Assembly (NCBI GenBank): GCA_965207225.1 | Contig: CBDBLV010000005.1 | Span: 1,600,001 to 1,664,000 of the forward strand | Length of the DNA stretch: 64,000 bases | Origin: Dehalococcoidia bacterium | Lineage (GTDB): Bacteria > Chloroflexota > Dehalococcoidia > Plut-88900 | Direction of reading: 5' to 3' | Shown: positions 16,415 to 55,835 of the stretch, piece by piece | Position numbering within the stretch: the stretch's first letter is position 1 | Layout of the letters: every line of letters starts with the position of its first letter | Translations under genes and position numbers: made by a program | The notes under the pieces: generated by a model | What the model was told of the DNA's origin: nothing | What the model saw: the letters and a program-made list of their open reading frames with translations, nothing else | The model's database searches: none

Positions 16415-16800
16415 CCCCTTCTCCCCTGTCATTCCGATGCCCCGCGAGGAATCTGGGGCTGGCAGGGAGGCTGGTCCCCTCCCCTGGGCCGAGGGGCCGC
16501 TCGTGCTGAGGCTACTCGAAGTATGAGCGGAGGGGAGGCCCACGCCTTGCCAACCCGTCTCATTCCTCCATCACCAACCACCCCCTTCTCCCCTGTCATT
16601 CCGATGCCCCGCGAGGAATCTGGGGTTGGGAGGAGGCCGGTCCCATTTCCTGGGCCATGGGGCCGCTCGTGCTGAGGCCCTCGAAGTATGAGCGGGGGGT
16701 GGCCCACGCCTCTCCAAATAGTCACCTCAGTCTGCCATCCACCCACGCGCCTAACTGTCATTCCGATGCCCCGCGAGGAATCTAGGACTTGTCCACTCAC
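16415..16800. repeat. BIME-like mosaic of alternating palindromic repeats X (CTGTCATTCCGATGCCCCGCGAGGAATCT) and Y (GCCGCTCGTGCTGAGGCnnCTCGAAGTATGAGCGG)
   Basis: X identical at 16426, 16593 and 16755; Y near 16495 and 16661; unit period about 165 bp. Confidence 0.9.
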
Positions 16801-16989: not shown

Positions 16990-17018
16990 TTGCACTACCT
17001 GAACCCCCGTGCTATACT
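16990..17018 (+). promoter_or_regulatory. Sigma70-type promoter (extended -10)
   Basis: TTGCAC-17-TATACT with TG two bases upstream of the -10. Confidence 0.6.
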
Positions 17019-17263
17019 ACACCCCAGGCCGCCGACCTCACACCTCGGCGCCCATCACAATGCAGGATCAAAGGAGTCCCATGAGCCGCATAAGCCTATA
17101 TAGGCCCCGTCTCAGCCGAGCGGTATCCCGCCGCCCGGCCACCGGCACGCGCCTCCTCCTAACTCCCTTTTCATTCCCCGTCCTGCACCCCAACACCCAC
17201 AACAAGCGCTGCCCAAAGGCCCAACGCCTGGGCCTTCGCAGCGATCAATCACCGCCCCGCCCT

Positions 17264-17722
17264 CAATACTGCCTGGTCCCCGTGACCGGCAACGGAAGGT
17301 TCCTTAACTCAAATCGGCTAGCTCTACTTCATGGCCAACACCGTAGAATCAGCGCCCCCGTTCCAGGTCGAATCTACGTAGCCGGCATCGACCTCGCCGG
17401 CGAATCGGAACAACCGGGAGACGTCCGTCTCCAGGGCTTTAAGCCCACCCAAGATTCCACCGTCGTAACTATCGGCGAACTCCAAATGCTTGATGACGGC
17501 CTCGGCTCCAGGCTCCCCGCCCTCTCTGTCGTCGAGCGCCATTGGTGGACGGGGAAGCCCCACACCGAGACCTTTTCGGGCCTTGTCCACCTTCTCAAAG
17601 ACGTTTGGGGCTGCCGCAGGGTGGTCGTCGACGCCATTGGCATTGGCGCAGACGTAGCCGCCTTCCTGCCTAAGACCATAGGACCTTCCATCGTCGTTCC
17701 CCTCACCTTCACCGCCCCGACC
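17264..17722 (+). pseudogene. Phage terminase large-subunit C-terminal (RNase H-like nuclease) fragment
   Basis: YVAGIDLAGE...DSTVVTI...RVVVDAIGIGADV...VPLTFT; no ATPase domain; truncated by repeats. Confidence 0.7.
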
Positions 17723-17937
17723 ATTTGCCCCCCCACCCCAATCGGGAATCCATCTCGAGGGGTGGAGCGGCCGGCCTCCGTAATGACTACCGGCGGGTCG
17801 CCCACCCCAGGGGAGGGGTCGCTCACCCTGAAGCCCCTCGAAGAGCCTGCCCCGATTCCCTCGAGGGGGTCGAGCGGGGTGGCCCACCCCCGACTGTCAA
17901 ATCTCGCCAGTCATCCCCGCCCACCCTATGCCGTCCT

Positions 17938-18262
17938 CCCTTCCCCTCTCCCCAGTATTGAACTAGAGGCCGAGGTTGGCGCTAGAGCGCCAACCTCGGC
18001 CTCTGTTATTCTCTCCCCCTCTCCTGTAGAGCCATCAAGGGAGAGGGGGACCAAGGGGGTGAGCGTTCCCTTCCTTCTTCTGAGACTGAGGCGCCCCTCT
18101 CTGTCGTCCCCGACTCCGGTCAAGAATCCCTCCTTTCCTCCCCCAGTATTGAAACTAGAGGGAGCAGTTGGCGCAGGCGCGCCAACTGCTCCCTCTGTTT
18201 TTCCTTCCCCCTCTCCCTTAAAGGCCCTAAGGGAGAGGGGGATAAAGGGGGAGAGGGTTCCT
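17938..18262 (+). repeat. Element Z, copies 2 and 3
   Basis: Same termini as copy 1 with covarying 18-bp stems. Confidence 0.9.
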
Positions 18263-18270
18263 TCCCCGCC

Positions 18271-18365
18271 CCCTGCGACACGCGAAGTCCCCGGAAATCC
18301 CTTTAAGCGTCGTTCAATCAAACCAGCTACGAGTTCAATCAACCTTCAATCAACGTTCAATCAAA
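18271..18365 (+). repeat. Dispersed element W with TTCAATCAA tandem units (copy 1)
   Basis: Homologous to the reverse complement of 54341-54464. Confidence 0.85.
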
Positions 18366-18508
18366 ACCCCCCACCCCCAACCGAACAAAAGCGGGGTGCG
18401 TCACTGCCCAACAAGGGCAGGCTGTTGACGCAATCTCCTTTTGACATTACCTTGTCGGAGCAATTGCCGGACTGAGAGACCCCAACACAACAACTTGGGA
18501 GAAGCACT

Positions 18509-19750
18509 ATGGGCAGGTCATTTCCAAAGACGGGCGCCAACTGGGACGAGCTCAAGGCTCGCCTGACCGAAGGCCGGCAGGAAGACGTCGACTGGCGCAC
18601 CGGGAAGATATCCGGCCTCCTCTACTACGCCGGCGAAGACGTTATAAAGGTCGCCCATGACGCCTACGCCATGTACTTCAACGAAAACGCGGTCTACCCG
18701 AAGGTGTTTCCCAGCCTTGCCAGGATGGAGGAAGAGGTAATCGACCTGAGCCTGGCGCTCCTGAACGGAGGAGAGCAGGCATCCGGGAGTATGACGACGG
18801 GAGGCACGGAAAGCATCTTCCTGGCCATCAAGACGGCCCGGGACTGGGCCCGGGCCAACAAGCCGCCCAACGGGACCCCCGAGATATTGATGTCCAGGAC
18901 GGCCCACCCGGCCTTCGACAGGGCCGCCGAGCTGATGGACCTTAAGGTCGTGCGCCTTGACCCGGGCCCCGACTTCCGCGCCGACGTTGACGCCATGTCC
19001 GACGCTATCACCGATAACACCATAATGATGGTCGGTTCCGCTCCCGAGTACCCCCACGGCATCGTCGACCCCATCACAGAGCTCGGCAAACTCGCCCAGT
19101 CCCGAGACCTATGGCTCCACGTCGATTGCTGCATTGGCGGCTTCATCGCCCCCTTTGTAAGGAAGCTCGGCTACCCCATACCCGACTTCGATTTCTCGGT
19201 GCCTGGGGTCAGGTCCATATCGGCGGACGTGCACAAGAACGGCTACGCGGCCAAGGGCGCCTCGACCGTCCTCTACAGTAATGCCGAATACCTGCAGTAC
19301 CAGGGGTTCGAGTTCGACCAGTGGTCGAAGGGCTACTACGGGACGCAGACGTTCGTTGGGAGCAGGCCGGGAGGGGCGGTGGCCTCGGCGTGGGCAGTCA
19401 TGAACTACCTTGGAGAAGAGGGTTACATGCGGATTGCCCAGGACGTAATGCACATCCGGGAAGCACTGATGGACGGTGTGAACCGGATAGGTGGGCTGGA
19501 GACCTACGGCGACCCCCAGCTGACCATCTTCACCTACGGGTCGAAAGAGTTCGACATCTTTGCGGTGGCGGACGGGATGGTGGATGCGGGGTGGTACACG
19601 AGCAGGATTCAAGAGCCCAATGCAATCCACATGATGCTATCGTTGATCCAGAAGCCGGTCGTGGAGGAGTACATCAGTGACCTTTCCTACGTGGTGAGCA
19701 AAGTACGGGAGGGTGGTCTGGTGTCGGAGAACAGGAAGATCATCTACTAG
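18509..19750 (+). CDS. PLP-dependent group II decarboxylase, sphingosine-1-phosphate-lyase-like
   Basis: TTGGTESI, AHPAF, WLHVDCCIGGF, SISADVHKNG, GSRPGG. Confidence 0.9.
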   Translation: MGRSFPKTGANWDELKARLTEGRQEDVDWRTGKISGLLYYAGEDVIKVAHDAYAMYFNENAVYPKVFPSLARMEEEVIDLSLALLNGGEQASGSMTTGGTESIFLAIKTARDWARANKPPNGTPEILMSRTAHPAFDRAAELMDLKVVRLDPGPDFRADVDAMSDAITDNTIMMVGSAPEYPHGIVDPITELGKLAQSRDLWLHVDCCIGGFIAPFVRKLGYPIPDFDFSVPGVRSISADVHKNGYAAKGASTVLYSNAEYLQYQGFEFDQWSKGYYGTQTFVGSRPGGAVASAWAVMNYLGEEGYMRIAQDVMHIREALMDGVNRIGGLETYGDPQLTIFTYGSKEFDIFAVADGMVDAGWYTSRIQEPNAIHMMLSLIQKPVVEEYISDLSYVVSKVREGGLVSENRKIIY

Positions 19751-23216: not shown

Positions 23217-23898
23217 TTGAGCAATTCTAACGGCAGATCGTACGTCAAATATACGTTTTTCAAAGCGGACAAGGAGTGGCGGAGACTATCGGGTGGCGAG
23301 AGGATGCAGGGGAGAGAACAGTTCGCTGCGATTCTGGATGAGTGCTCGGACAGGTTGATGGTCGGTCGGAATCCGGGGGGATACCGATCTGCTGATCTGG
23401 AATGCGTGCGATGAACTGGAGCCGATACAGCAGTTGACGGCGGCGCTTTTGGGGTCGGGGCTGGGGAAGCACCTAGATATCCCGTATTCGTACCTGGCGA
23501 TGACCCGGAAGTCGATTTACACGGAGAAGCACCGGCACCCGGGGCAGGAGGGGAACAGGCTGAAGATCACTCCAACGGGAGCCCGGTACCTGTTCGTCTA
23601 CCCGTTTGTGAAGACCCGGGCGTGGTATATGCTGGACAAAGCGGAGAGGCAGCGGATGATGGATGCGCACATCACCACGGGGCACAAGTACCCATCGGTG
23701 AAGATCAACACCAGCTACTCCTTTGGGTTGGACGATCAGGAGTTCATGGTCTCCTTCGAGACGGACAGCCCGTCGGACTTCCTGGACCTCGTGATGGAGC
23801 TCCGCGGGACGGAGGCTAGCAGCTACACACTGCGGGACACGCCGATTTTCACGTGCGTATCCATGAGTCCGATGGAGGCGCTGGAGATGCTGGGCTAG
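23217..23898 (+). pseudogene. Chlorite dismutase/coproheme decarboxylase family protein, frameshifted at about 23364
   Basis: N-half YVKYTFFK..WRRL in one frame; VGIRGDTDLLIW..YSYLAMT..VYPFVKTRAWY..SFGLDDQEF in the next frame; TTG start after AGGAG. Confidence 0.8.
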
Positions 23899-25052
23899 CC
23901 GACTGCTGCCTGCTGCCGGGACTCTACGAGGGGGATGACCCTCTCCGCGAACAACTCGATGGAGCGCATGACGTGGCGGTGGTCCAGACCCGGCATGGCC
24001 ATAAGGGTCAGCAGGCTGTCCAACTGATACTCCTCATCAAGCTCGCGGATCTTGGCGGCGACGAACTCGGGATCTCCGATGAAGAGGTGGTTTTTCTCCA
24101 TGAGGAAGTCGAACCAGGGTTTCACCTTGTCCTCTTCGGTGAGCTCCTCGCCGGGTTCGAGGTAGATGGAGCGGGGTCTGGCGCCGCTGGTGTACTGAGC
24201 CAGGGCGTTTAGGGGGCCTTCGGCGATGCGCCGGGCCTCTTCGTTGGTCTCGGCGACGAAGGTTGTGCGGAGAAGGGCGCAGTCCTCGCCGAGAGCCATA
24301 GGCCGACCATTGACCCGGGTTGCGGCCTCCTGGTAGGTGGAGAATACCTCCCAAAGGCTGCCCCGGGCCCTGAGCCAGGTCATAGGTTTGAGCCCGAGCT
24401 CGGCGGCGACGACGAAGCCAGGGGTCTTGTCGACGACGTTCCAGAGAGGGGGGTGGGGGGACTGGAAGGGCTTGGGCTGGATGGACATGCCGATATACTC
24501 GCCCTCTTCGGAGCGGTACCTGGGGTCGCGCTCGCGCCAGGAGTGGCTGTCTTTAACGCCGGGGTGGGGGAAGCTGTAGAACTCTCCGTCGTAGGTGAAG
24601 GGGTCCTCGGTCCAGGCCCTTTTCATAATATCTACGGTCTCGGTGAAGACGCGCCAGTTCTTCTGCTCGTTGCGGCGGTCTGCTTCGATGTTCAGGTTGG
24701 TGAGCTCCCGGGGGAAGATGCCGCGCCCGACGCCGCACTCGACGCGTCCGCCGCTGAGCTGGTCGAGCATGGCGACGTCCTCGGCGACGCGGAGGGGGTG
24801 CCACTGGGGGACGATGAGCGCTGCAAGGCCAAGCCGGACATCGGTGGTCTTGGCGGCCAGATGGGAGAGGATCATCATGGGGTTGGGGATCCCGTCGAAA
24901 CCCTCGCCGCCGAAGTGGTGCTCGCCGAGCCAGACGGCGTTGAAGCCCGCCTGCTCGATGGCGAGAGTCTGCTCGGTGAGTTCGGAGAGGATCTGGTTGT
25001 ATGGGAGTCGGAGGTCGGGGTTGTCCAGAGTGGAGAAGAAACCGAATTTCAA
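23895..25052 (-). CDS. LLM-class flavin-dependent oxidoreductase
   Basis: GFNAVWLGEHHF, WHPLRVAEDVAMLDQLSGGRVECGVGRG, PKPFQSPHPP. Confidence 0.93.
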   Translation of the reverse strand: MKFGFFSTLDNPDLRLPYNQILSELTEQTLAIEQAGFNAVWLGEHHFGGEGFDGIPNPMMILSHLAAKTTDVRLGLAALIVPQWHPLRVAEDVAMLDQLSGGRVECGVGRGIFPRELTNLNIEADRRNEQKNWRVFTETVDIMKRAWTEDPFTYDGEFYSFPHPGVKDSHSWRERDPRYRSEEGEYIGMSIQPKPFQSPHPPLWNVVDKTPGFVVAAELGLKPMTWLRARGSLWEVFSTYQEAATRVNGRPMALGEDCALLRTTFVAETNEEARRIAEGPLNALAQYTSGARPRSIYLEPGEELTEEDKVKPWFDFLMEKNHLFIGDPEFVAAKIRELDEEYQLDSLLTLMAMPGLDHRHVMRSIELFAERVIPLVESRQQAAVG

Positions 25053-25235
25053 GATCAGACTCCTGCTGCCTTGTGTAATCGGGCCTCAGGTTAGCACAGG
25101 CGGGAAAGGGAGTCTATCAGCAGGGGGGAGATGAGATGAAGGTCGGTCTGGGTGTTGTGGGGGGAGGGGTGGGATTATGGGCTAGCGGGGCAGGTCCTTT
25201 CTATGGGCGGGACCCGCCACGCCCCCGCACCGCCC

Positions 25236-25401
25236 TGGATTCCCGACTGCTCGGGAATGACGGATTGGGAAGGGATGGATTCCGGCTCGGGGGCCGGAAT
25301 GACGGAAAGGGGAGGGGTGAGTTGCGGGGTCAGGGGTGAGTGTTTCGGAGGGATGGATTCCTGCCTCCGCAGGAATGACGAAGAAGAGGCGGGAATGACG
25401 G
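25236..25401. repeat. Cluster of X-family palindromes (TGGATTCC-N-GGAATGAC)
   Basis: Copies at 25236, 25276 and 25354 plus a half copy near 25390; inner stems differ but stay paired. Confidence 0.85.
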
Positions 25402-25546
25402 TGTAAAGGGAGGGGAATGCCAGCGCCCCCTCATCGGCGTAAGCCGGGGCGTCGGGGACCGGAACGTGGGCAATCGCCTGGGCGTTGGCCCGGGCAATCT
25501 TCGCAAGGCCGGGTAGGGCGTTGCGGGCGTACCTCCGCGCAAAGGC

Positions 25547-25681
25547 GCGGGCATCCACAGCGGAGGGGAAAGCTCGCAAAGGGTTAGCTGTGGGAAATAC
25601 ATCTGCGGCGAGCCTGGGCAGGCATCCACGGCGGAGGGGGGCACTCGCGGGGGTTAGCCGTGGGAACATCTGCAGCGAGTG
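25547..25681. ncRNA. Putative tandem pseudoknotted RNA motif (2 copies), unassigned
   Basis: Two ~70-nt units, each with two crossing stems showing compensatory changes. Confidence 0.45.
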
Positions 25682-26032
25682 AAAGCAGGCATCCATCCGT
25701 ACGCCGCTATGGGCGCAGGTGGGGTCCTTCCGCGGAAAACCGCGGGCATCCACGTCCGGGTGGGGCAGCAAGGGAAGATGCGGCTCCTTAGTGACGCCGG
25801 ACGGCAGTAGTCGAGAGGGGGCGCTGGGCTTTGAACTTCCACGGGGGAAGGGTGAAGGGCTGAGGGACACGGTAGGCGGAAAGGTAGTGGGGAGGAGGTG
25901 CGTGTCGGCAGAGGGTCGGTCCCATACCGACCGGGTGCGACGGGGCCATGTGAGGCCTATGCGGCTCATGGGACTCCTTTAGTCCTTTCCTGGTTTGGTG
26001 GCCCGGGTAACGAGGCCGGTGCCACGAACATA

Positions 26033-26060
26033 AGTATAGCACATACATTTACAAAATCAA
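26033..26060 (-). promoter_or_regulatory. Sigma70-type promoter (extended -10) facing the 25.4-26.0 kb non-coding region
   Basis: TTGATT-16-TATACT with TG two bases upstream of the -10, minus strand. Confidence 0.55.
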
Positions 26061-26116
26061 TAGGTGGGGGTGGTAATGGAGGAACGCGACGGATTGCAAA
26101 AGCGTGGTCCGCCCCT

Positions 26117-26291
26117 GCTCATACTTCGAGTGGCCTCAGCATGAGCGGCCCAACCCCAAGAAGGAAACTCCCTCACCCCGCCCCAGATTCCTCGCGGGGC
26201 ATCGGAATGACAGGGGAGAAGGCTGTGGGTGGGGTGAAGGATGGTTGTGGGTTGGCGGGCGTGAGAGATCTTTCGCGGGGCATCGGAATGG
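26117..26291. repeat. Y + X + X repeat mosaic
   Basis: GCTCATACTTCGAGTGGCCTCAGCATGAGCGGC near 26118; AGATTCCTCGCGGGGCATCGGAATGACAG at 26185; degenerate X at 26266. Confidence 0.85.
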
Positions 26292-26365
26292 GATAAAGGG
26301 AGTAGGGTAGGGGGCTGTGCTAAAATCGGCGAATCCGGGCATTGAAGAGCGAGGCATTTACGCGC

Positions 26366-27130
26366 ATGCAGCTACCTCACATAGGACTGGATATTGACGG
26401 ACCGGTGGCCGTTTTGACGTTGAGGGGAGAGGATGAGTCCAATCGTGTGACGGCGGCAATGGGGGAGGACATGGCGGCGACGGTTGAATGGGTCAGGGAC
26501 GACGAGAGTGTGCGGGTTGTGGTGGTGACGGGGGAGGGTGCGGTGTTCTCCGGGGGGACAGAGGCGGCGGTGAGGGAGGTCGTGGGCAGGGGTGTTGACA
26601 GGGCGCCGGGCGCGGCCCGCCATATCGCTCAACTGGCTTTACCGGTGATTGCGGCAGTCAATGGGGATGCGCTGGGGTTGGGGCTGGAGCTGGCGCTGGC
26701 CTGTGACCTTAGGGTGGCGAGCGAGGAAGCCGTTTTCGCGATGGACCAGATCAAGTACGGAATGATGTCGTGGGACGGCGGGACGCAGCGTTTGCCGAGG
26801 CTGGTGGGCCGGGGGCGGGGGGCGGCGATGGTTTTAACCGGGATGGAGGTGGATGCCGAGAGGGCGCTGGAGATGGGGTTGGCGCACGCCTTGTTTCCGA
26901 GGGAATCGGTGGTGAAGGAAGCCATTGCGCTGGCGCACAGAATTGCGAACCATGCCCCCGTGGCCCTGGAGTATGCAAAAGAAACGATAAACAAGGGGAT
27001 GGACATGACGCTGGACCAGGGGCTCAGGCTGGAGCAGGACCTGACCGTGATATTGCAGTCGACGGCAGACCGGGCCGAGGGAATCCGGTCTTTCCTGGAG
27101 AAGCGCAAGCCAGAATTCCGCGGCGAATAG
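26366..27130 (+). CDS. Enoyl-CoA hydratase/isomerase family protein
   Basis: PVIAAVNGDALGLGLELALACDLR, GGTQRLPRLVG, FLEKRKPEF. Confidence 0.92.
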   Translation: MQLPHIGLDIDGPVAVLTLRGEDESNRVTAAMGEDMAATVEWVRDDESVRVVVVTGEGAVFSGGTEAAVREVVGRGVDRAPGAARHIAQLALPVIAAVNGDALGLGLELALACDLRVASEEAVFAMDQIKYGMMSWDGGTQRLPRLVGRGRGAAMVLTGMEVDAERALEMGLAHALFPRESVVKEAIALAHRIANHAPVALEYAKETINKGMDMTLDQGLRLEQDLTVILQSTADRAEGIRSFLEKRKPEFRGE

Positions 27131-27137
27131 GGGCGGT

Positions 27138-27869
27138 ATGGAGAGTTTCGAGACGGTTATCTTCGAGATACGGGACTCGGTGGCGTGGGTCACACTTAAC
27201 AGGCCCCGGGTGCTGAACGCTTACAACGTCCAGATGCGGGACGACCTGTATGAGGCATTAACTGCGGTGTCGTGGGACTCGGAGATCAGGGCGGTGGTGA
27301 TATCGGGGGCCGGGGACCGGGCGTTTTGCGCAGGCGCCGACCTGACGGAGTTCGGGACTGCGCCATCGCAGAGGATTGCACGGCAGGTGAGGTGGGAGAG
27401 GGACGTGTGGGGCTTGCTTATGGATTTGCCCATCCCGACGATTGCGGCGATGCACGGGTACGTTTTTGGGTCGGGCCTAGAGATTGCGCTGTGCTGCGAT
27501 ATCAGAATCGCGACGCCGAATGCAATCTTCGGGCTGCCGGAGACGTCGTTAGGTTTCATACCGGCGGCGGGGGCCACTCAGACTTTTCCGAGGGCGGTCG
27601 GGACCGGGCAGGCATTGTGGACGCTGTTGACCGCAGAGCGGATGGACGCTAATCGGGCGCTCTCAATGGGGCTGATCAGCGAGATAGTGCCGGAGGGTGG
27701 ATTGAAGGCCCGGTGCGGGGCTTTGGCGGAGGGGTTCTTTAGGTCGGGGACGCGTCCCCTGGCGGCGGCGAAGGCAGCGATGCGTCGGGGGCTGGACCTG
27801 CTCCTGGAAGAGGGGCTGGGGGTGGAGTCGGGGCTGGCGCGAGAGCTTATCCGAGCCGGCAATAGATAA
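27138..27869 (+). CDS. Enoyl-CoA hydratase/isomerase family protein
   Basis: VTLNRP, AFCAGADL, GSGLEIALCCDIR, FGLPETSLG. Confidence 0.92.
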   Translation: MESFETVIFEIRDSVAWVTLNRPRVLNAYNVQMRDDLYEALTAVSWDSEIRAVVISGAGDRAFCAGADLTEFGTAPSQRIARQVRWERDVWGLLMDLPIPTIAAMHGYVFGSGLEIALCCDIRIATPNAIFGLPETSLGFIPAAGATQTFPRAVGTGQALWTLLTAERMDANRALSMGLISEIVPEGGLKARCGALAEGFFRSGTRPLAAAKAAMRRGLDLLLEEGLGVESGLARELIRAGNR

Positions 27870-30238: not shown

Positions 30239-31240
30239 CTATGATGGGGTGGTTACGTTGAAGATGCGGGGGGCGATGTGGGCGAGGAGGAGGTCGGTGG
30301 ACATGATCATTGAGCGGCCGGAGGGGTCGATGCGGGGGGAGACCTCGACGAAGTCCATGGCGCCGATGGGGTAGCTGGAGAGAATGCGGAGTATGGTGGC
30401 CATGATGTCGGGGGTGATGGCGTCGTTGACGACAGAGCCGGTGGCGGGAAAGAACCCGGTGTCTATGAAGTCGATGTCGACGGACATGTAGATGAAATCG
30501 CAGCCGGCGGAGGCGCGCTCGCCGGCCTGGCGGGCGACCTGCTCGGGGCCAATGCGGAGGACGTCGGCGGCGGTGAAGATGAGGCCGTTGTTGGAATCGA
30601 TAGCGCTGACGGGTTCCTCGTCGGACCAGCCCTGGATGCCGATCCAGACCATGTTGGAAGGGCTGACAAGGTCGAGCTCGGAGATGCGGCGGGCGTTGGT
30701 GCCGTGGTTGTACTTGCCCCAGACGGGGGTGTCGTCCCGGAAGTCGAGGTGGCCGTCGATGTGGATGTAGCCGATCCTGGGCTTTGGGGAAAGCTCGGTG
30801 ACGGCACGGGTGTAGCCCAGGCAGGAGGGGTAGCCGACGTAATGATCGCCGCCGAGGCAGACGGAGAAGCCTCCCCGCTTCACGACCTCTTCGACACCTC
30901 CGGCAATGCCTTCCGTGGACTTCATTACGTCGGAGGGGTAGACGTTGTAGTCGCCGACATCGACGAGGCGGTTGGTATCGGGGAGGGTGAGGCGGTCGCC
31001 GGAGGCGACATCGAGGATGCCGTCGGGGCCCGATTCGTGGATTCGCTGGGCCATGGCGAGGGAACCGTCCCTGATGCCTCGGGGGCCCATTCGAGTGCCG
31101 AAGCGGCTGGTGTGGGTGCTGTCGTGGGGGGCGCCGCCGATGACGACCATGCCGCGTTCGACCTTGTCCATGGCCACGTAGGGCGAGCCGAGGAAGGTGG
31201 AGGCGCCTATATCCACCAATTGGTGTGCTTGTTCACTCAC
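30239..31240 (-). CDS. Ureohydrolase (agmatinase/arginase family), intact dimetal site (A2)
   Basis: GGDH, HIDGHLD, NHGT, SVDID, VEVSP. Confidence 0.92.
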   Translation of the reverse strand: MSEQAHQLVDIGASTFLGSPYVAMDKVERGMVVIGGAPHDSTHTSRFGTRMGPRGIRDGSLAMAQRIHESGPDGILDVASGDRLTLPDTNRLVDVGDYNVYPSDVMKSTEGIAGGVEEVVKRGGFSVCLGGDHYVGYPSCLGYTRAVTELSPKPRIGYIHIDGHLDFRDDTPVWGKYNHGTNARRISELDLVSPSNMVWIGIQGWSDEEPVSAIDSNNGLIFTAADVLRIGPEQVARQAGERASAGCDFIYMSVDIDFIDTGFFPATGSVVNDAITPDIMATILRILSSYPIGAMDFVEVSPRIDPSGRSMIMSTDLLLAHIAPRIFNVTTPS

Positions 31241-32244
31241 TTGTAGCTCCCGGTGAGCCTGATCTTTTCGTCTATGAAGCGGATGAGCATTTCGACACCG
31301 CAGCGTTGCCCGGTCTTGACGAGGCTCATTGTTTCGATGAGGGGATTTAGGCCGCAGAGGCTGATGCCGCCGACCGGGCCACGGGCGAGGAGGGGCATGG
31401 CCTCGAAGAGCTCGACGTTGCGGAGGCCGTCGAATCGGGGGGTGCCGGTCATGGCGACGTAGCCGCCGTCCATTACGTCTATGTCGATGCCCACGAAGAT
31501 GCCGGAGCAGTTGTGGGAGGCGCTGTCAAGGGCTTCGGAGATTACGTCAGGGATGCCGCGGGTGTGGACCTGTTCGGCGGTGATGACCGTGGCCGGCAGC
31601 CTTTCGGCCATCTGCCACTGCTCCAGGGGTATGTAGCCATTGGCGCCGATAAAGACCATGTTTTCGGGGCGGACTGTTTCGGAGTCCAGGAGGCGTCTAG
31701 CGGTGGCGCCGCGCCAGACGTCTCCCCAGACCGGGTCCCGGGACCCGAGGTCAAGGCGGCTGGAAAACTGGATGTAGCCCACGGAGCCGCCGTCCGATTC
31801 ACGGAGGGCTTCCAGGTATCCCTGGACCAAGGGATAGGTGATGAAATGGTCGCCGCCGAGGGCCACGGGGGTAGCGCCCCGGAAGGTTATGTCTCGGGCG
31901 GCGTTGTGGAGGGTGGAGGACATGATATCCCAGTCGACGTGGGAGACGGGCAGGTCGCCGAGGTCCCGGACCAAGTTGCGGACGACATTGGTGTTGGTTG
32001 TGAGGCGGGAATTGATCTCAACCAGGGTAGCGTCTTGGGCGGTCATCATCTGGAAGTAGGTGGAGGTCTCCCGGTAAGCCTTGGGTGCGACCCGCGGGCC
32101 GATCTGGTCGGGGCTGGAAACGTCGTAAGGAACGCCAAAGATGCCGAACATGCTGGGTGTCAGTTCGTCGATGACGCCCGTGGGTGCCCCGATGAAGGTC
32201 ATCAGGCCGCTGGTCTTGGGAATGGGGCCTCTGCGGATGGGCAT
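31237..32244 (-). CDS. Ureohydrolase-fold protein with degenerate metal site (B2)
   Basis: GGDH and DID kept; QFSSRLD replaces DxHxD; CGLNP replaces VExxP. Confidence 0.88.
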   Translation of the reverse strand: MPIRRGPIPKTSGLMTFIGAPTGVIDELTPSMFGIFGVPYDVSSPDQIGPRVAPKAYRETSTYFQMMTAQDATLVEINSRLTTNTNVVRNLVRDLGDLPVSHVDWDIMSSTLHNAARDITFRGATPVALGGDHFITYPLVQGYLEALRESDGGSVGYIQFSSRLDLGSRDPVWGDVWRGATARRLLDSETVRPENMVFIGANGYIPLEQWQMAERLPATVITAEQVHTRGIPDVISEALDSASHNCSGIFVGIDIDVMDGGYVAMTGTPRFDGLRNVELFEAMPLLARGPVGGISLCGLNPLIETMSLVKTGQRCGVEMLIRFIDEKIRLTGSYK

Positions 32245-32245
32245 A

Positions 32246-32638
32246 TCAGATGCCTACTTCCCTGGAACCGCTAACACCGTTGCCGGTTGCAGAGTCGGGC
32301 TTTGGATCTCGTTTTCTTGCCCTGCCGCCTATTTTGACGACTTTGACAAAGGCAGATGTCAGAGAAACTACCAGGGCGTACAGCAAGTCTGTGAAGGACT
32401 TAAAGAGCATCATCAGAATAGTTATCAGAAAAGCCACGATAGTAACAGCGAGGGACGTAAACAAAAGGTAGTCACCCAAGGTGTAGGGCAGTGAACGATA
32501 AACATCCGTTGTACCCGGCACCAATTCAAGCCTGTCAATCCTCAAGGCGACAGTTATAGCCAAGATGACGTTTAGGACAACTATGAAACCGAGAACCAGA
32601 AATAAGATATTCCAGCTAGCGAACCGGGGTGGGGCCAA
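32246..32638 (-). CDS. Small membrane protein (2-3 TM)
   Basis: Hydrophobic segments; TTG start after AGAGGAG; lower GC than flanks. Confidence 0.65.
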   Translation of the reverse strand: MAPPRFASWNILFLVLGFIVVLNVILAITVALRIDRLELVPGTTDVYRSLPYTLGDYLLFTSLAVTIVAFLITILMMLFKSFTDLLYALVVSLTSAFVKVVKIGGRARKRDPKPDSATGNGVSGSREVGI

Positions 32639-32717
32639 ATGTGAACTCCTCTTCTGAATGTCCTTTATGTGCCTTTGGACTATCCGCTCTCGGGAGGCCA
32701 GGAATTGAAGCGTATTA

Positions 32718-32930
32718 TCAGGTCTTTCGCCAAATTAGATTGAAGAATTTGAGAGCCATAAGCAGGACGGTAAGGAGAAATGCCAGCATGGTGAGTACGG
32801 AGGCGAGCAGCAGGGAAATGCCCACGCTGTCGTGGAGCAGGACGTGGAGAATCCAGAGGATGATGCTGGCAACCAGGAACAGAACCTGGGCTGCGAGCAG
32901 CTTGAGCCAGGTGAAACCGCTTAACTTCAT
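32718..32930 (-). CDS. Small 2-TM membrane protein
   Basis: 70 aa, two hydrophobic helices, starts 18 nt after the upstream stop. Confidence 0.6.
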   Translation of the reverse strand: MKLSGFTWLKLLAAQVLFLVASIILWILHVLLHDSVGISLLLASVLTMLAFLLTVLLMALKFFNLIWRKT

Positions 32931-32948
32931 ATCGATTCACTGATGTGT

Positions 32949-33920
32949 TCAATAGACCTCAAAGATTTTGAGGGTGATGAGCTTTATGAGGGCCTCGGCG
33001 GCGAAACGGGGTGTACGGCTGCTGGGGTCGAGGGGTGGGGAGGTCTCGACGAGGTCCATGGAGCCGATGGGGAACTGGGACAGGGGCCCGAGGATCCGGA
33101 AGAGGGTCGAGGCGGTCATAGCTCCCATGGTGACGGAGCCGGTGCCATCGGAGAAGCCAGCGTCTATCACGTCGATGTCGAAGCTCATGTAGATGGTGTC
33201 GCAGCCTCGCATGGCCAGCTCTCCGGCGCGGTAGCCGACGGTCTCGGGACCCATTTCCTCAACGTCTTCGCTGGTGAAGATGGTGCCTCCGTAGCGCCGG
33301 ATAAGCTCGACCTGGTCGAGGTAGCAGGGGCCCTGGATGCCGATGAAGACCATGTTTGCGGGCTCCATGGCATCGAGTTCGGAGATGCGCCGGGCGTTGG
33401 TGCCGTTCATGTACTTGCCGTAGGGGCCGTAGGAATCGGCGAAGTCCAGGTGTCCGTCGATGTGGATGTAGCCGACGCGGGCGTTGGGTCTAAGTCGGCC
33501 CAGGGCCCGGGTGTAGCCAAGGCAGGATGGGTAGCCGACGTAGTGGTCGCCGCCCAGGCAGACGGAGAATCCGCCCCGCATCACCACCTCAGAAACACCG
33601 CCGGCGATACCCTCGGTGGCCTTCATCACGTCGGAGGGGTAGGAGTTGAAGTCTCCGACATCGACGAGGGGGAAATCGTTGGGGCGGATTAGGGTGTGGC
33701 CAGTCGTTACGTCTATGAGGCCCTCGGGGGCGTGGTCGAACTTCTGGGAGACGTTAAGAGAGTGGTGGCGGATGCCCCGAGGGCCGTAGCGTTCGCCGAA
33801 GCGGTCCCGGAGGCTGTGGGGTGCGCCGCTTATGACGGTCATGCCGGGCTGTACGTCGGAGAGGCCGACGAGGGGAGCGCCCATGAAAGTCGGGGCTGAG
33901 GTATGTGCGTAGTCCTGCAT
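32949..33920 (-). CDS. Ureohydrolase, intact dimetal site (A1)
   Basis: GGDH, HIDGHLD, MNGT, SFDID, VETSP. Confidence 0.92.
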   Translation of the reverse strand: MQDYAHTSAPTFMGAPLVGLSDVQPGMTVISGAPHSLRDRFGERYGPRGIRHHSLNVSQKFDHAPEGLIDVTTGHTLIRPNDFPLVDVGDFNSYPSDVMKATEGIAGGVSEVVMRGGFSVCLGGDHYVGYPSCLGYTRALGRLRPNARVGYIHIDGHLDFADSYGPYGKYMNGTNARRISELDAMEPANMVFIGIQGPCYLDQVELIRRYGGTIFTSEDVEEMGPETVGYRAGELAMRGCDTIYMSFDIDVIDAGFSDGTGSVTMGAMTASTLFRILGPLSQFPIGSMDLVETSPPLDPSSRTPRFAAEALIKLITLKIFEVY

Positions 33921-55513: not shown

Positions 55514-55710
55514 CCGCTCATACTTCGAGTGGCCTCAGCATGAGCGGCCCCGCCCCAGGACGACCCGCCGGTCGCCCCTACGGGGAGGGGACTGGACACC
55601 CCGCACTACCACCTCCCTGGATTCCCCCCGACTCCTCGGGAATGACGAAGGGGAGAGGGGAGGGATTCACGCCATAGGCGCATTTTCGACCCGGTCGCGG
55701 TCGGGAATGA
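55514..55710. repeat. Y and X repeats upstream of prs
   Basis: GCTCATACTTCGAGTGGCCTCAGCATGAGCGGC near 55516; TGGATTCCC..GGGAATGACG at 55618. Confidence 0.8.
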
Positions 55711-55735
55711 TGGGGAGGAGGGGGGTGGGGGGCTA

Positions 55736-55744
55736 TGCTATAAT
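55736..55744 (+). promoter_or_regulatory. Extended -10 promoter of prs-secA-polX
   Basis: TGCTATAAT. Confidence 0.6.
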
Positions 55745-55835
55745 CGGGGGGACAGGCGGAGACCATTCCCATAGGCGCGATCCTCTTTTCCCGCTGATCA
55801 AGCGATAACTTAATCTGTTTCGAGGGAGTGACGGG

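Follow-up and report, generated by a model that had tools for sequence, protein, structure and literature searches.

The window analysed here is a 64,000-nt stretch of Dehalococcoidia DNA (genome G000; all coordinates are positions within the window). It contains a 1.29-kb gap bounded by genes for a luciferase-like oxidoreductase (23895..25052, minus strand) and an enoyl-CoA hydratase (26342..27130, plus strand), and two adjoining tandem units of 71 and 67 nt lie in this gap at 25549-25694. The units had been proposed in a first-pass annotation made from the letters alone; the letters it quoted are present, with the arms one base further right than given there, and Tandem Repeats Finder reports an array at 25550-25695 (period 67, 2.1 copies, 77% matches, score 164). 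The two units, U1 and U2, form the best-conserved interior of a ~650-nt cassette that runs from 26060 to 25416 on the minus strand, and the best reading of this cassette is a nucleic-acid-level element, not a protein gene. Because a promoter, a Shine-Dalgarno sequence with its ATG and a maintained reading frame all point the same way, the minus (C-rich) strand is the likely transcribed one, opposite to the strand written in the first-pass annotation. The features of the cassette are listed below, where A2 denotes the alignment of 15 cassettes folded with RNAalifold.

26033..26060, minus strand: sigma-70-type promoter, TTGATT and TATACT separated by a 16-nt spacer with TG (consensus scan)
26000..26023, minus strand: 5' hairpin just past the predicted transcription start (RNAalifold)
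25876..26042, minus strand: 5' module of ~167 nt (nhmmer), containing AAGGAG at 25974-25979 and ATG at 25967-25969
25175..25969, minus strand: ORF0, 264 codons, open from the conserved ATG onwards
25815..25827, minus strand: 5' arm of the closing helix, 13 bp (inverted repeat I3, 100% complementary)
25730..25752, minus strand: GGAUGCC followed by a 6-bp hairpin (RNAalifold pairs)
25620..25694, minus strand: unit U2, unit 2 of the first-pass annotation and the first transcribed (nhmmer and covariance-model matches, pair counts)
25549..25627, minus strand: unit U1, unit 1 of the first-pass annotation (nhmmer and covariance-model matches, pair counts)
25535..25556, minus strand: GGAUGCC followed by a 6-bp hairpin that ends the unit array (A2 pairs 639-644/649-654, invariant in 15/15)
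25433..25534, minus strand: 3' hairpins, one of them of 12 pairs, several of which are compensatory (RNAalifold)
25420..25432, minus strand: 3' arm of the closing helix; the cassettes cease to be homologous at ~25416

BLAST and a three-way alignment of the genomic copies delimit a shared stretch at window 25416-26068, ~650 nt long and with sharp ends. The cassette is present in three copies in G000, the other two being 98.5% and 91.8% identical to the window copy, and a search of the same genome with 161 nt around the units gives three matches, at 100, 100 and 99% identity. The 5' module occurs there in 17 copies (nhmmer, E 7e-44 to 1.7e-39), one of which has ACG in place of ATG. These 17 copies fall into subfamilies with different bodies, and the window's own subfamily shows no DNA similarity to the others outside the 5' module. 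Full-length homologues of the window's own subfamily, subfamily 1, number 15 in five genomes (three each in G000, G008 and G005, four in G007 and two in G001) and are 73-99% identical to the window copy. They occupy eight types of syntenic locus, as judged from the flanking proteins; four types are common to several species, and at these shared types the downstream proteins are 84-99% identical between species. Subfamily 4, with 12 copies from G001, G002, G004 and G006, is laid out as the 5' module, one unit of the U1/U2 type, 3-6 tandem units of 57/60 nt and the common closing helix.

Among the genomes searched, the unit and the cassette family are found solely in this genus. BLAST with the cassette gives matches in all eight other genomes of the genus and in none of 32 genomes outside it (three of the same family, 29 of the same class). 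A covariance model of the unit, run over 151 genomes of the class, matches G000 and all five other genus members sampled, with one further weak match outside the genus (E 0.003). A scan of a genome collection with a 17-letter motif returned at least 110 loci, many of them chance matches in unrelated phyla; among the matches listed, 47 also match the hidden Markov model of the 5' module, under titles that read 'MAG: Dehalococcoidia bacterium' (MAG, metagenome-assembled genome) plus one Brevibacterium locus (L102). A degenerate unit pattern found at least 120 loci in metagenomes, and among the matches listed none match the hidden Markov models of the unit or the 5' module. DNA runs that carry the stretch are labelled sponge, coral or marine metagenome, and two of them contain near-identical pieces, for example a 190-nt contig with no differences and one of 322 nt with six. 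The literature search, whose scope did not extend to supplementary files, turned up no account of an element of this kind.

The beginning and the end of the cassette are defined by conserved signals. The promoter consensus scan finds two sites, compared with 0.4 expected from shuffles, and in the aligned homologues a -35/-10 pair occupies the corresponding position despite differences in the surrounding sequence. Within the 5' hairpin, pairs 58-62/70-74 of A2 show CG/GC and AU/GC/GU exchanges in the RNAalifold consensus. AAGGAG precedes the ATG (25969) by five bases, and GGAGTCCCATGAG is invariant in 14 of the 15 homologues, the remaining copy having A for the second G. At the other end, the 13-bp closing helix is perfect in the window copy and invariant in all 15 subfamily-1 cassettes; at one paired position, the C and G of subfamily 1 are T and A in subfamily 4. 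The helix encloses both units and further hairpins on either side of them, and the three genomic copies as well as the 15 homologues diverge directly past its 3' arm. Over the whole of A2, RNAalifold predicts 141 pairs, 18 of them with compensatory changes. In the 12-pair 3' hairpin, A2 pairs 695/718, 700/713, 703/710 and 704/709 are changed on both sides in 3-4 sequences each, and in the hairpin at 25730..25752 pair 434/439 is GC in eight sequences, CG in five and broken in two.

Read as minus-strand RNA, each unit consists of two hairpins, O with 4-5 bp and A with 6-7 bp. The joint, between the hairpins and from unit to unit, is an invariant GGAUGCC. CUCGC in the loop of O is complementary to GCGAG in the loop of A, and this complementarity defines stem B. 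The arms of the helices, all on the minus strand, are placed as follows.

25555-25561 with 25587-25593: U1, hairpin A
25572-25577 with 25608-25613: U1, stem B
25603-25606 with 25618-25621: U1, outer helix O
25626-25632 with 25657-25663: U2, hairpin A
25643-25648 with 25675-25680, with a seventh pair 25642/25681: U2, stem B
25670-25673 with 25685-25688: U2, outer helix O

The pairings are kept by the homologues. In an alignment of 42 homologous units, 36 of them distinct, from 27 cassettes of nine genomes, helices O, A and B are paired in 96.1% of 612 cells, compared with 19.6-48.0% when the partners are slid by 1-3 columns. Among the 36 distinct units, pair 8/24 of helix O is UA in 26 and CG in 10, and pair 39/71 of hairpin A is GC in 21, AU in 14 and unpaired in one. 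The outer part of stem A was also counted in 98 distinct units of all types by comparing the tetramer that runs into GGAUGCC with the upstream tetramer: GCGG meets CCGC in 42 of 43 cases, GUGG meets CCAC in 35 of 37 and ACGG meets CCGU in 8 of 8, wrong partners being rare. Hairpins O and A are supported by covariation, other unit types included. Stem B behaves differently, its five CUCGC/GCGAG pairs being invariant in all 36 distinct units while neighbouring loop letters vary. The first-pass annotation had proposed a pseudoknot with compensatory changes in both stems; the exchanges it listed between the two units (A-T to G-C in stem A, G-C to A-T in stem B) are present, and compensation holds for A and for O, but the five core pairs of B do not change. 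A loop-loop pseudoknot is plausible but unproven on this pattern of conservation: the invariant arms of B would fit a tertiary loop-loop contact and would equally fit two protein-recognition sites. A loop-loop (kissing) contact of two adjoining hairpins describes the topology better than a classical H-type knot does.

Other early claims about the units fared variously. GGCATCCAC, said to recur four times, is matched exactly at 25550, 25621 and 25745, while the copy at 25688 contains a single mismatch. The units were said to break the reading frame, which is true of each singly (71 and 67 nt), but jointly they span 138 nt, or 46 codons. No known family covers them, as had been suspected: Rfam covariance models give no match there, none at gathering score anywhere in the window, and with E up to 10 over 24000-27500 only two weak matches, both outside the units. 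The tandem arrangement and the compensating differences are real. Instead of standing alone as a riboswitch or ribozyme, the units are the core of a promoter-driven, multicopy cassette.

Selection keeps the ATG frame of the cassette open without conserving amino acids. From the ATG to the 3' end of the closing helix there are no stops in 14 of 15 subfamily-1 and 10 of 12 subfamily-4 cassettes, the other frames containing 0-15, and the ATG-to-helix distance is always 2 mod 3 in the open-frame cassettes, at lengths of 449-617 nt. Seven indel events or pairs between the ATG and the helix preserve the frame (one of 6 nt, one of 51 nt, one of 12 nt, two separate ones of 3 nt, a +2/+1 pair separated by 85 nt and a +1/-1 pair separated by 9 nt), compared with one that breaks it: G007c, the only subfamily-1 copy to contain stops, has a deletion of 1 nt. 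The three codon phases contain 79, 79 and 75 variable alignment columns. In eight pairs, the ratio of nonsynonymous to synonymous divergence (dN/dS) of the ATG frame is 0.86-1.37, which does not set it apart from the other two frames. U1 and U2, though homologous, fall in different reading frames. ORF0 is 191-320 codons long in the 14 intact copies; its stop lies 22-405 nt past the cassette, in unrelated flanking sequence, and in 12 of 15 copies 62-181 nt separate this stop from the first start codon of the following gene. ORF0 has no match in Pfam or PHROGs, and its product looks like composition-driven filler. Because selection maintains an open frame without amino-acid conservation, ribosomes appear to enter the cassette at the Shine-Dalgarno sequence and ATG and to read through it.

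In the cassette, constraint is present at the nucleotide level and absent at the protein level. Across eight orthologous pairs, cassette divergence is 0.055-0.28 and synonymous divergence of the neighbouring genes is 0.10-0.95, a ratio of ~0.2-0.8. The mean identity between genomes is 91.3% for U2 and 91.9% for U1, compared with 73-77% for the parts on either side, and the closing-helix arms, at 94-98%, stand above the units. The copies evolve in concert: they group by genome and not by locus, so that G001a and G001b are 97.1% alike at different syntenic loci. As a separate observation on the 15 copies (loci L016-L043), different-locus copies within one genome are 92-98% alike and orthologous copies across genomes 76-95%.

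The surroundings of the cassette are consistent in orientation. Within 1.5 kb downstream, the longest frame runs in the direction of the cassette in 13 of 15 copies, and the longest upstream frame is divergent in 12 of 15. By Pfam, the genes downstream of the three G000 copies are Bac_luciferase, Amidohydro_2 and AcetylCoA_hydro/_C (acetyl-CoA hydrolase/transferase), and the upstream gene is ECH_1. No intrinsic terminator was found between the cassette and the downstream gene, and a Rho gene is present in G000. We infer transcription from the minus-strand promoter. Metatranscriptome contigs from two runs of two studies fall inside the cassette, at 25542-25957 with 19 differences and at 25454-25708 with 18, and these RNA-library contigs are a weak indication of cassette transcription. 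Neither RNA run has contigs over the flanking genes; the contigs come from relatives, so this has no bearing on co-transcription. CsrA was not found in G000, whose genome is 92% complete, and the idea of a CsrA sponge was rejected on that ground.

Parts of the cassette recur in other arrangements. Clusters of GGATGCC mark ten places in the genome. Five of these belong to another cassette family, the e-family, with a different promoter and leader (G000:C5:1273039-1273339 and four others; L288), in which six tandem 60-nt two-hairpin GGATGCC units run in frame into a domain of ~170 residues, followed by an acidic tail. The ratio of nonsynonymous to synonymous differences (pN/pS) of the e-family is 0.35 in the domain, for which the other frames give 1.1-1.3, and rises to 0.81 over the repeats; its protein has no match in Pfam or PHROGs, and no ATG, GTG or TTG start common to the five copies was identified upstream of the repeats. 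The covariance model of the unit also finds, at 46-50 bits, three further loci (G000:C5:673089-673241, 805218-805370 and 941488-941640), where a leader of the e-family type is followed by two diverged units and then by a paralogous coding region. Modules of the form 'GGAUGCC, hairpin, GA(U/A)GA, hairpin' are thus reused among several cassette families of the genus, always in an open frame, and the U1/U2-type unit is a variant of this module with two complementary loops.

A second member of the family lies in the window at 17009-18475 on the plus strand; it has the promoter and the 5' module (17009-17173, one of the 17 copies) in common with the cassette, and a 464-codon open frame. A 131-residue part of it (17348-17740) resembles viral protein clusters in Atlas, with scores of 0.94-0.96, and four of 30 Atlas hits are in clusters of which 24% of the members carry Terminase_6C. 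An origin of this body from a terminase is only a lead suggested by these cluster resemblances. The sister open reading frame (17081-18475) has no match in Pfam or PHROGs, and there is none for the sister copy among PDB sequences; for the window's subfamily a terminase-derived body is not supported, Pfam and PHROGs giving nothing. A gene resembling pyridoxal-phosphate enzymes follows the sister cassette at 18509 in the same orientation.

Short dispersed hairpin repeats flank the cassette on its outside:

25236..25410, no strand assigned: repeats of the GGATTCC...GGAATGACGG type, with many short genome-wide matches

Motifs of this type number 16 in the window, compared with 7.4 expected. Such repeats also occur at 26100-26300, 16426-16764 and 55639-55834; they look like repetitive extragenic palindromic (REP) elements and cluster around cassettes. 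Near-identical copies of a 33-39-nt repeat at 26175-26213 are very numerous and occur on each of the five contigs. Elsewhere in the window, 30239-33920 (minus strand) holds three mutually similar open reading frames of 323-335 residues (30239..31240, 31237..32244 and 32949..33920), and the DNA at 30629-30968 matches that at 33330-33669 at 80.6%.

We place roughly even odds (about 0.5) on the cassette being a promoter together with a long, structured, ribosome-traversed leader of the co-oriented downstream catabolic gene. On this account, the minus-strand promoter would drive transcription of the cassette (26060 to about 25416), and ribosomes would load at the Shine-Dalgarno sequence and ATG and traverse the C-rich leader. 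Speculatively, translation of the leader could shield the C-rich transcript from Rho, and the tandem units could act as a recognition or roadblock module that tunes this protection. A bolder form of the proposal, quite improbable as it stands, would make the units a sensor or roadblock within a translated, amino-acid-neutral leader frame, at which the binding of a factor or ligand stalls or admits ribosomes and so decides Rho termination before the catabolic gene; this would amount to a new class of translation-coupled attenuator, with some twenty concertedly evolving paralogous copies per genome, in one genus.

If the leader reading is true, an uncultured group of Dehalococcoidia controls many expanded catabolic genes via one reusable cassette, the genes affected including luciferase-like oxidoreductases, amidohydrolases and CoA-transferases. 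In the cassette, a promoter and a structured RNA core are combined with a frame that has to remain open while its product is unimportant; this combination has no Rfam counterpart, and none was found in the literature. It would also offer a clean natural case for the interplay of RNA structure, translation and Rho, in a phylum without a genetic system. For annotation, a caution follows: these cassettes yield 'hypothetical proteins' of 190-790 codons, probably without sequence-dependent function.

Several observations weigh against a structured, translated leader. As regards structure, there is one covarying pair per unit helix and the swaps track unit type, which implies few independent events; the covariation of stem B is the U1/U2 difference only, and its sixth pair, 15/58, which the first-pass annotation had taken as compensatory, is GC in 14, AU in 12 and unpaired in 10 of the 36 distinct units. 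RNAalifold, which cannot draw knots, favours a nested pairing of the 5' arm of hairpin A in U2 with the 3' arm of hairpin A in U1, and the folding energy of the tandem is unremarkable on both strands (z -0.63 and -0.76). G-U and A-C mismatches in helices predicted on both strands occupy 34 and 38 cells, and 22 and 18 cells, respectively, without strand preference, so that selection on DNA hairpins or on both strands is possible. Since the copies cluster by genome, gene conversion lowers the effective number of sequences and could influence the comparison of rates. As regards expression, the case for translation is wholly evolutionary, the Rho-coupling step is pure inference, and two of the 15 copies have their longest downstream frame on the opposite strand. 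The metatranscriptome contigs are assembled sequences of relatives (93-95% identity), carrying neither strand information nor a DNA control.

Among the competing explanations, a stand-alone, trans-acting structured RNA, for example a protein-binding scaffold of repeated GGAUGCC-hairpin modules that ends at the closing helix, would account for the cassette having its own promoter and sharp, helix-closed ends, for the GGAUGCC-plus-hairpin module occurring four times here and up to six times in sister cassettes, and for RNA-library contigs that end inside the cassette. The open frame would then be a by-product, and a pure non-coding RNA gives no reason for frame-preserving indels or for a conserved Shine-Dalgarno sequence and ATG. 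The lack of a terminator past the closing helix, the failure to find the obvious GGA-binding partner CsrA in a 92%-complete genome and the co-oriented downstream gene in 13 of 15 copies tell in the same direction, and we consider such an RNA unlikely. The conserved start signals and open frame are, on the other hand, what a real gene would show if it encoded a disordered Arg/Pro/Ser-rich repeat protein whose composition and length matter and whose hairpins are secondary; the five-copy e-family, whose in-frame GGATGCC units precede a domain that evolves under purifying selection (pN/pS 0.35), lends this some colour. It is nevertheless quite unlikely for the window cassette, where dN/dS is ~1 over the whole frame and substitutions lack 3-periodicity, the homologous U1 and U2 do not share a reading frame, one genome pair differs in frame over 85 nt, and the C-terminus runs into unrelated flanking repeats to end 22-405 nt past the cassette. 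Pfam and PHROGs find no match to such a protein, and compensatory changes maintain the hairpins.

An explanation at the level of DNA, either a selfish repeat akin to the surrounding REP-like hairpins or an array of protein sites, with hairpins formed in DNA or serving as palindromic sites, draws on the mismatches without strand bias, on the clusters of short dispersed hairpin repeats among which the cassette sits and on a concerted evolution typical of repeats. We hold it distinctly unlikely, given that the copies lie at syntenic loci across species instead of being scattered, that the cassette ends are not mutual inverted repeats (one closing-helix arm, 25815-25827, is internal) and that promoter, Shine-Dalgarno sequence, ATG and frame maintenance would be left unexplained. 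A ligand-sensing tandem riboswitch, a self-cleaving ribozyme or a repeat array like a type III antitoxin is very improbable. Tandem units with invariant loop letters and covarying stems, placed upstream of metabolic genes, are what would bring such elements to mind, but no Rfam model matches the units at any threshold, and the units lie within a frame that appears to be translated. A ligand shared by all copies is not suggested by downstream genes that differ from locus to locus, and no toxin gene adjoins the cassette.

The cassette can be compared with known systems feature by feature. Like the sponge RNAs of the CsrB/RsmZ type, it has repeated GGA motifs beside hairpins; the GGA here is in stem and linker instead of hairpin loops, and its usual partner CsrA is the protein that the genome search did not find. 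REP elements, bacterial interspersed mosaic elements (BIMEs) and miniature inverted-repeat transposable elements (MITEs) are, like the cassette, multicopy, hairpin-rich, intergenic and subject to concerted evolution. The cassette differs from REP and MITE elements in being 650 nt long, in having its own promoter, Shine-Dalgarno sequence and ATG, and in being syntenic across species without terminal inverted repeats. The large RNAs OLE, GOLLD, ROOL and HEARO are several hundred nucleotides long, contain many conserved helices and had no known function at discovery; the cassette likewise has several hundred nucleotides and many conserved helices, and the Rfam models of these four have no match in the window. 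To our knowledge, there are no reports of any of them maintaining an open frame, or of a genome carrying 15-20 paralogues of one as leaders.

Type III antitoxin repeat arrays are tandem direct repeats that fold as pseudoknots, as outlined in a section of PMC3401426. The units here are likewise tandem (2.1 copies), as in ToxI, CptI and TenpI, and their crossing helix B is complementary but invariant. No gene for an endoribonuclease toxin follows the cassette, ToxN, CptN and TenpN not being among the Pfam-named neighbours. ToxI units are 36 nt, and the cassette differs in having only two units, each about twice as long, which lie inside an open frame and a larger helix-closed domain.

There is also a correspondence of layout to the leaders of the mgtA/corA type and to the Mbox with an upstream open reading frame, which, so far as excerpts of PMC5314796, PMC5021804 and PMC12810186 describe them, combine a promoter, a structured leader and a frame whose translation could gate Rho. 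The cassette has a similar layout, its promoter and leader being co-oriented with and upstream of a gene in 13 of 15 copies. It departs from the systems of those excerpts in that ORF0 is long (191-320 codons) and has no conserved codons, in place of a short regulatory peptide. Compared with the same excerpts, the leader here is a multicopy, concertedly evolving element of one genus, and its likeness to leader-frame attenuators acting through Rho is one of predicted layout and of a Rho gene in the same genome.

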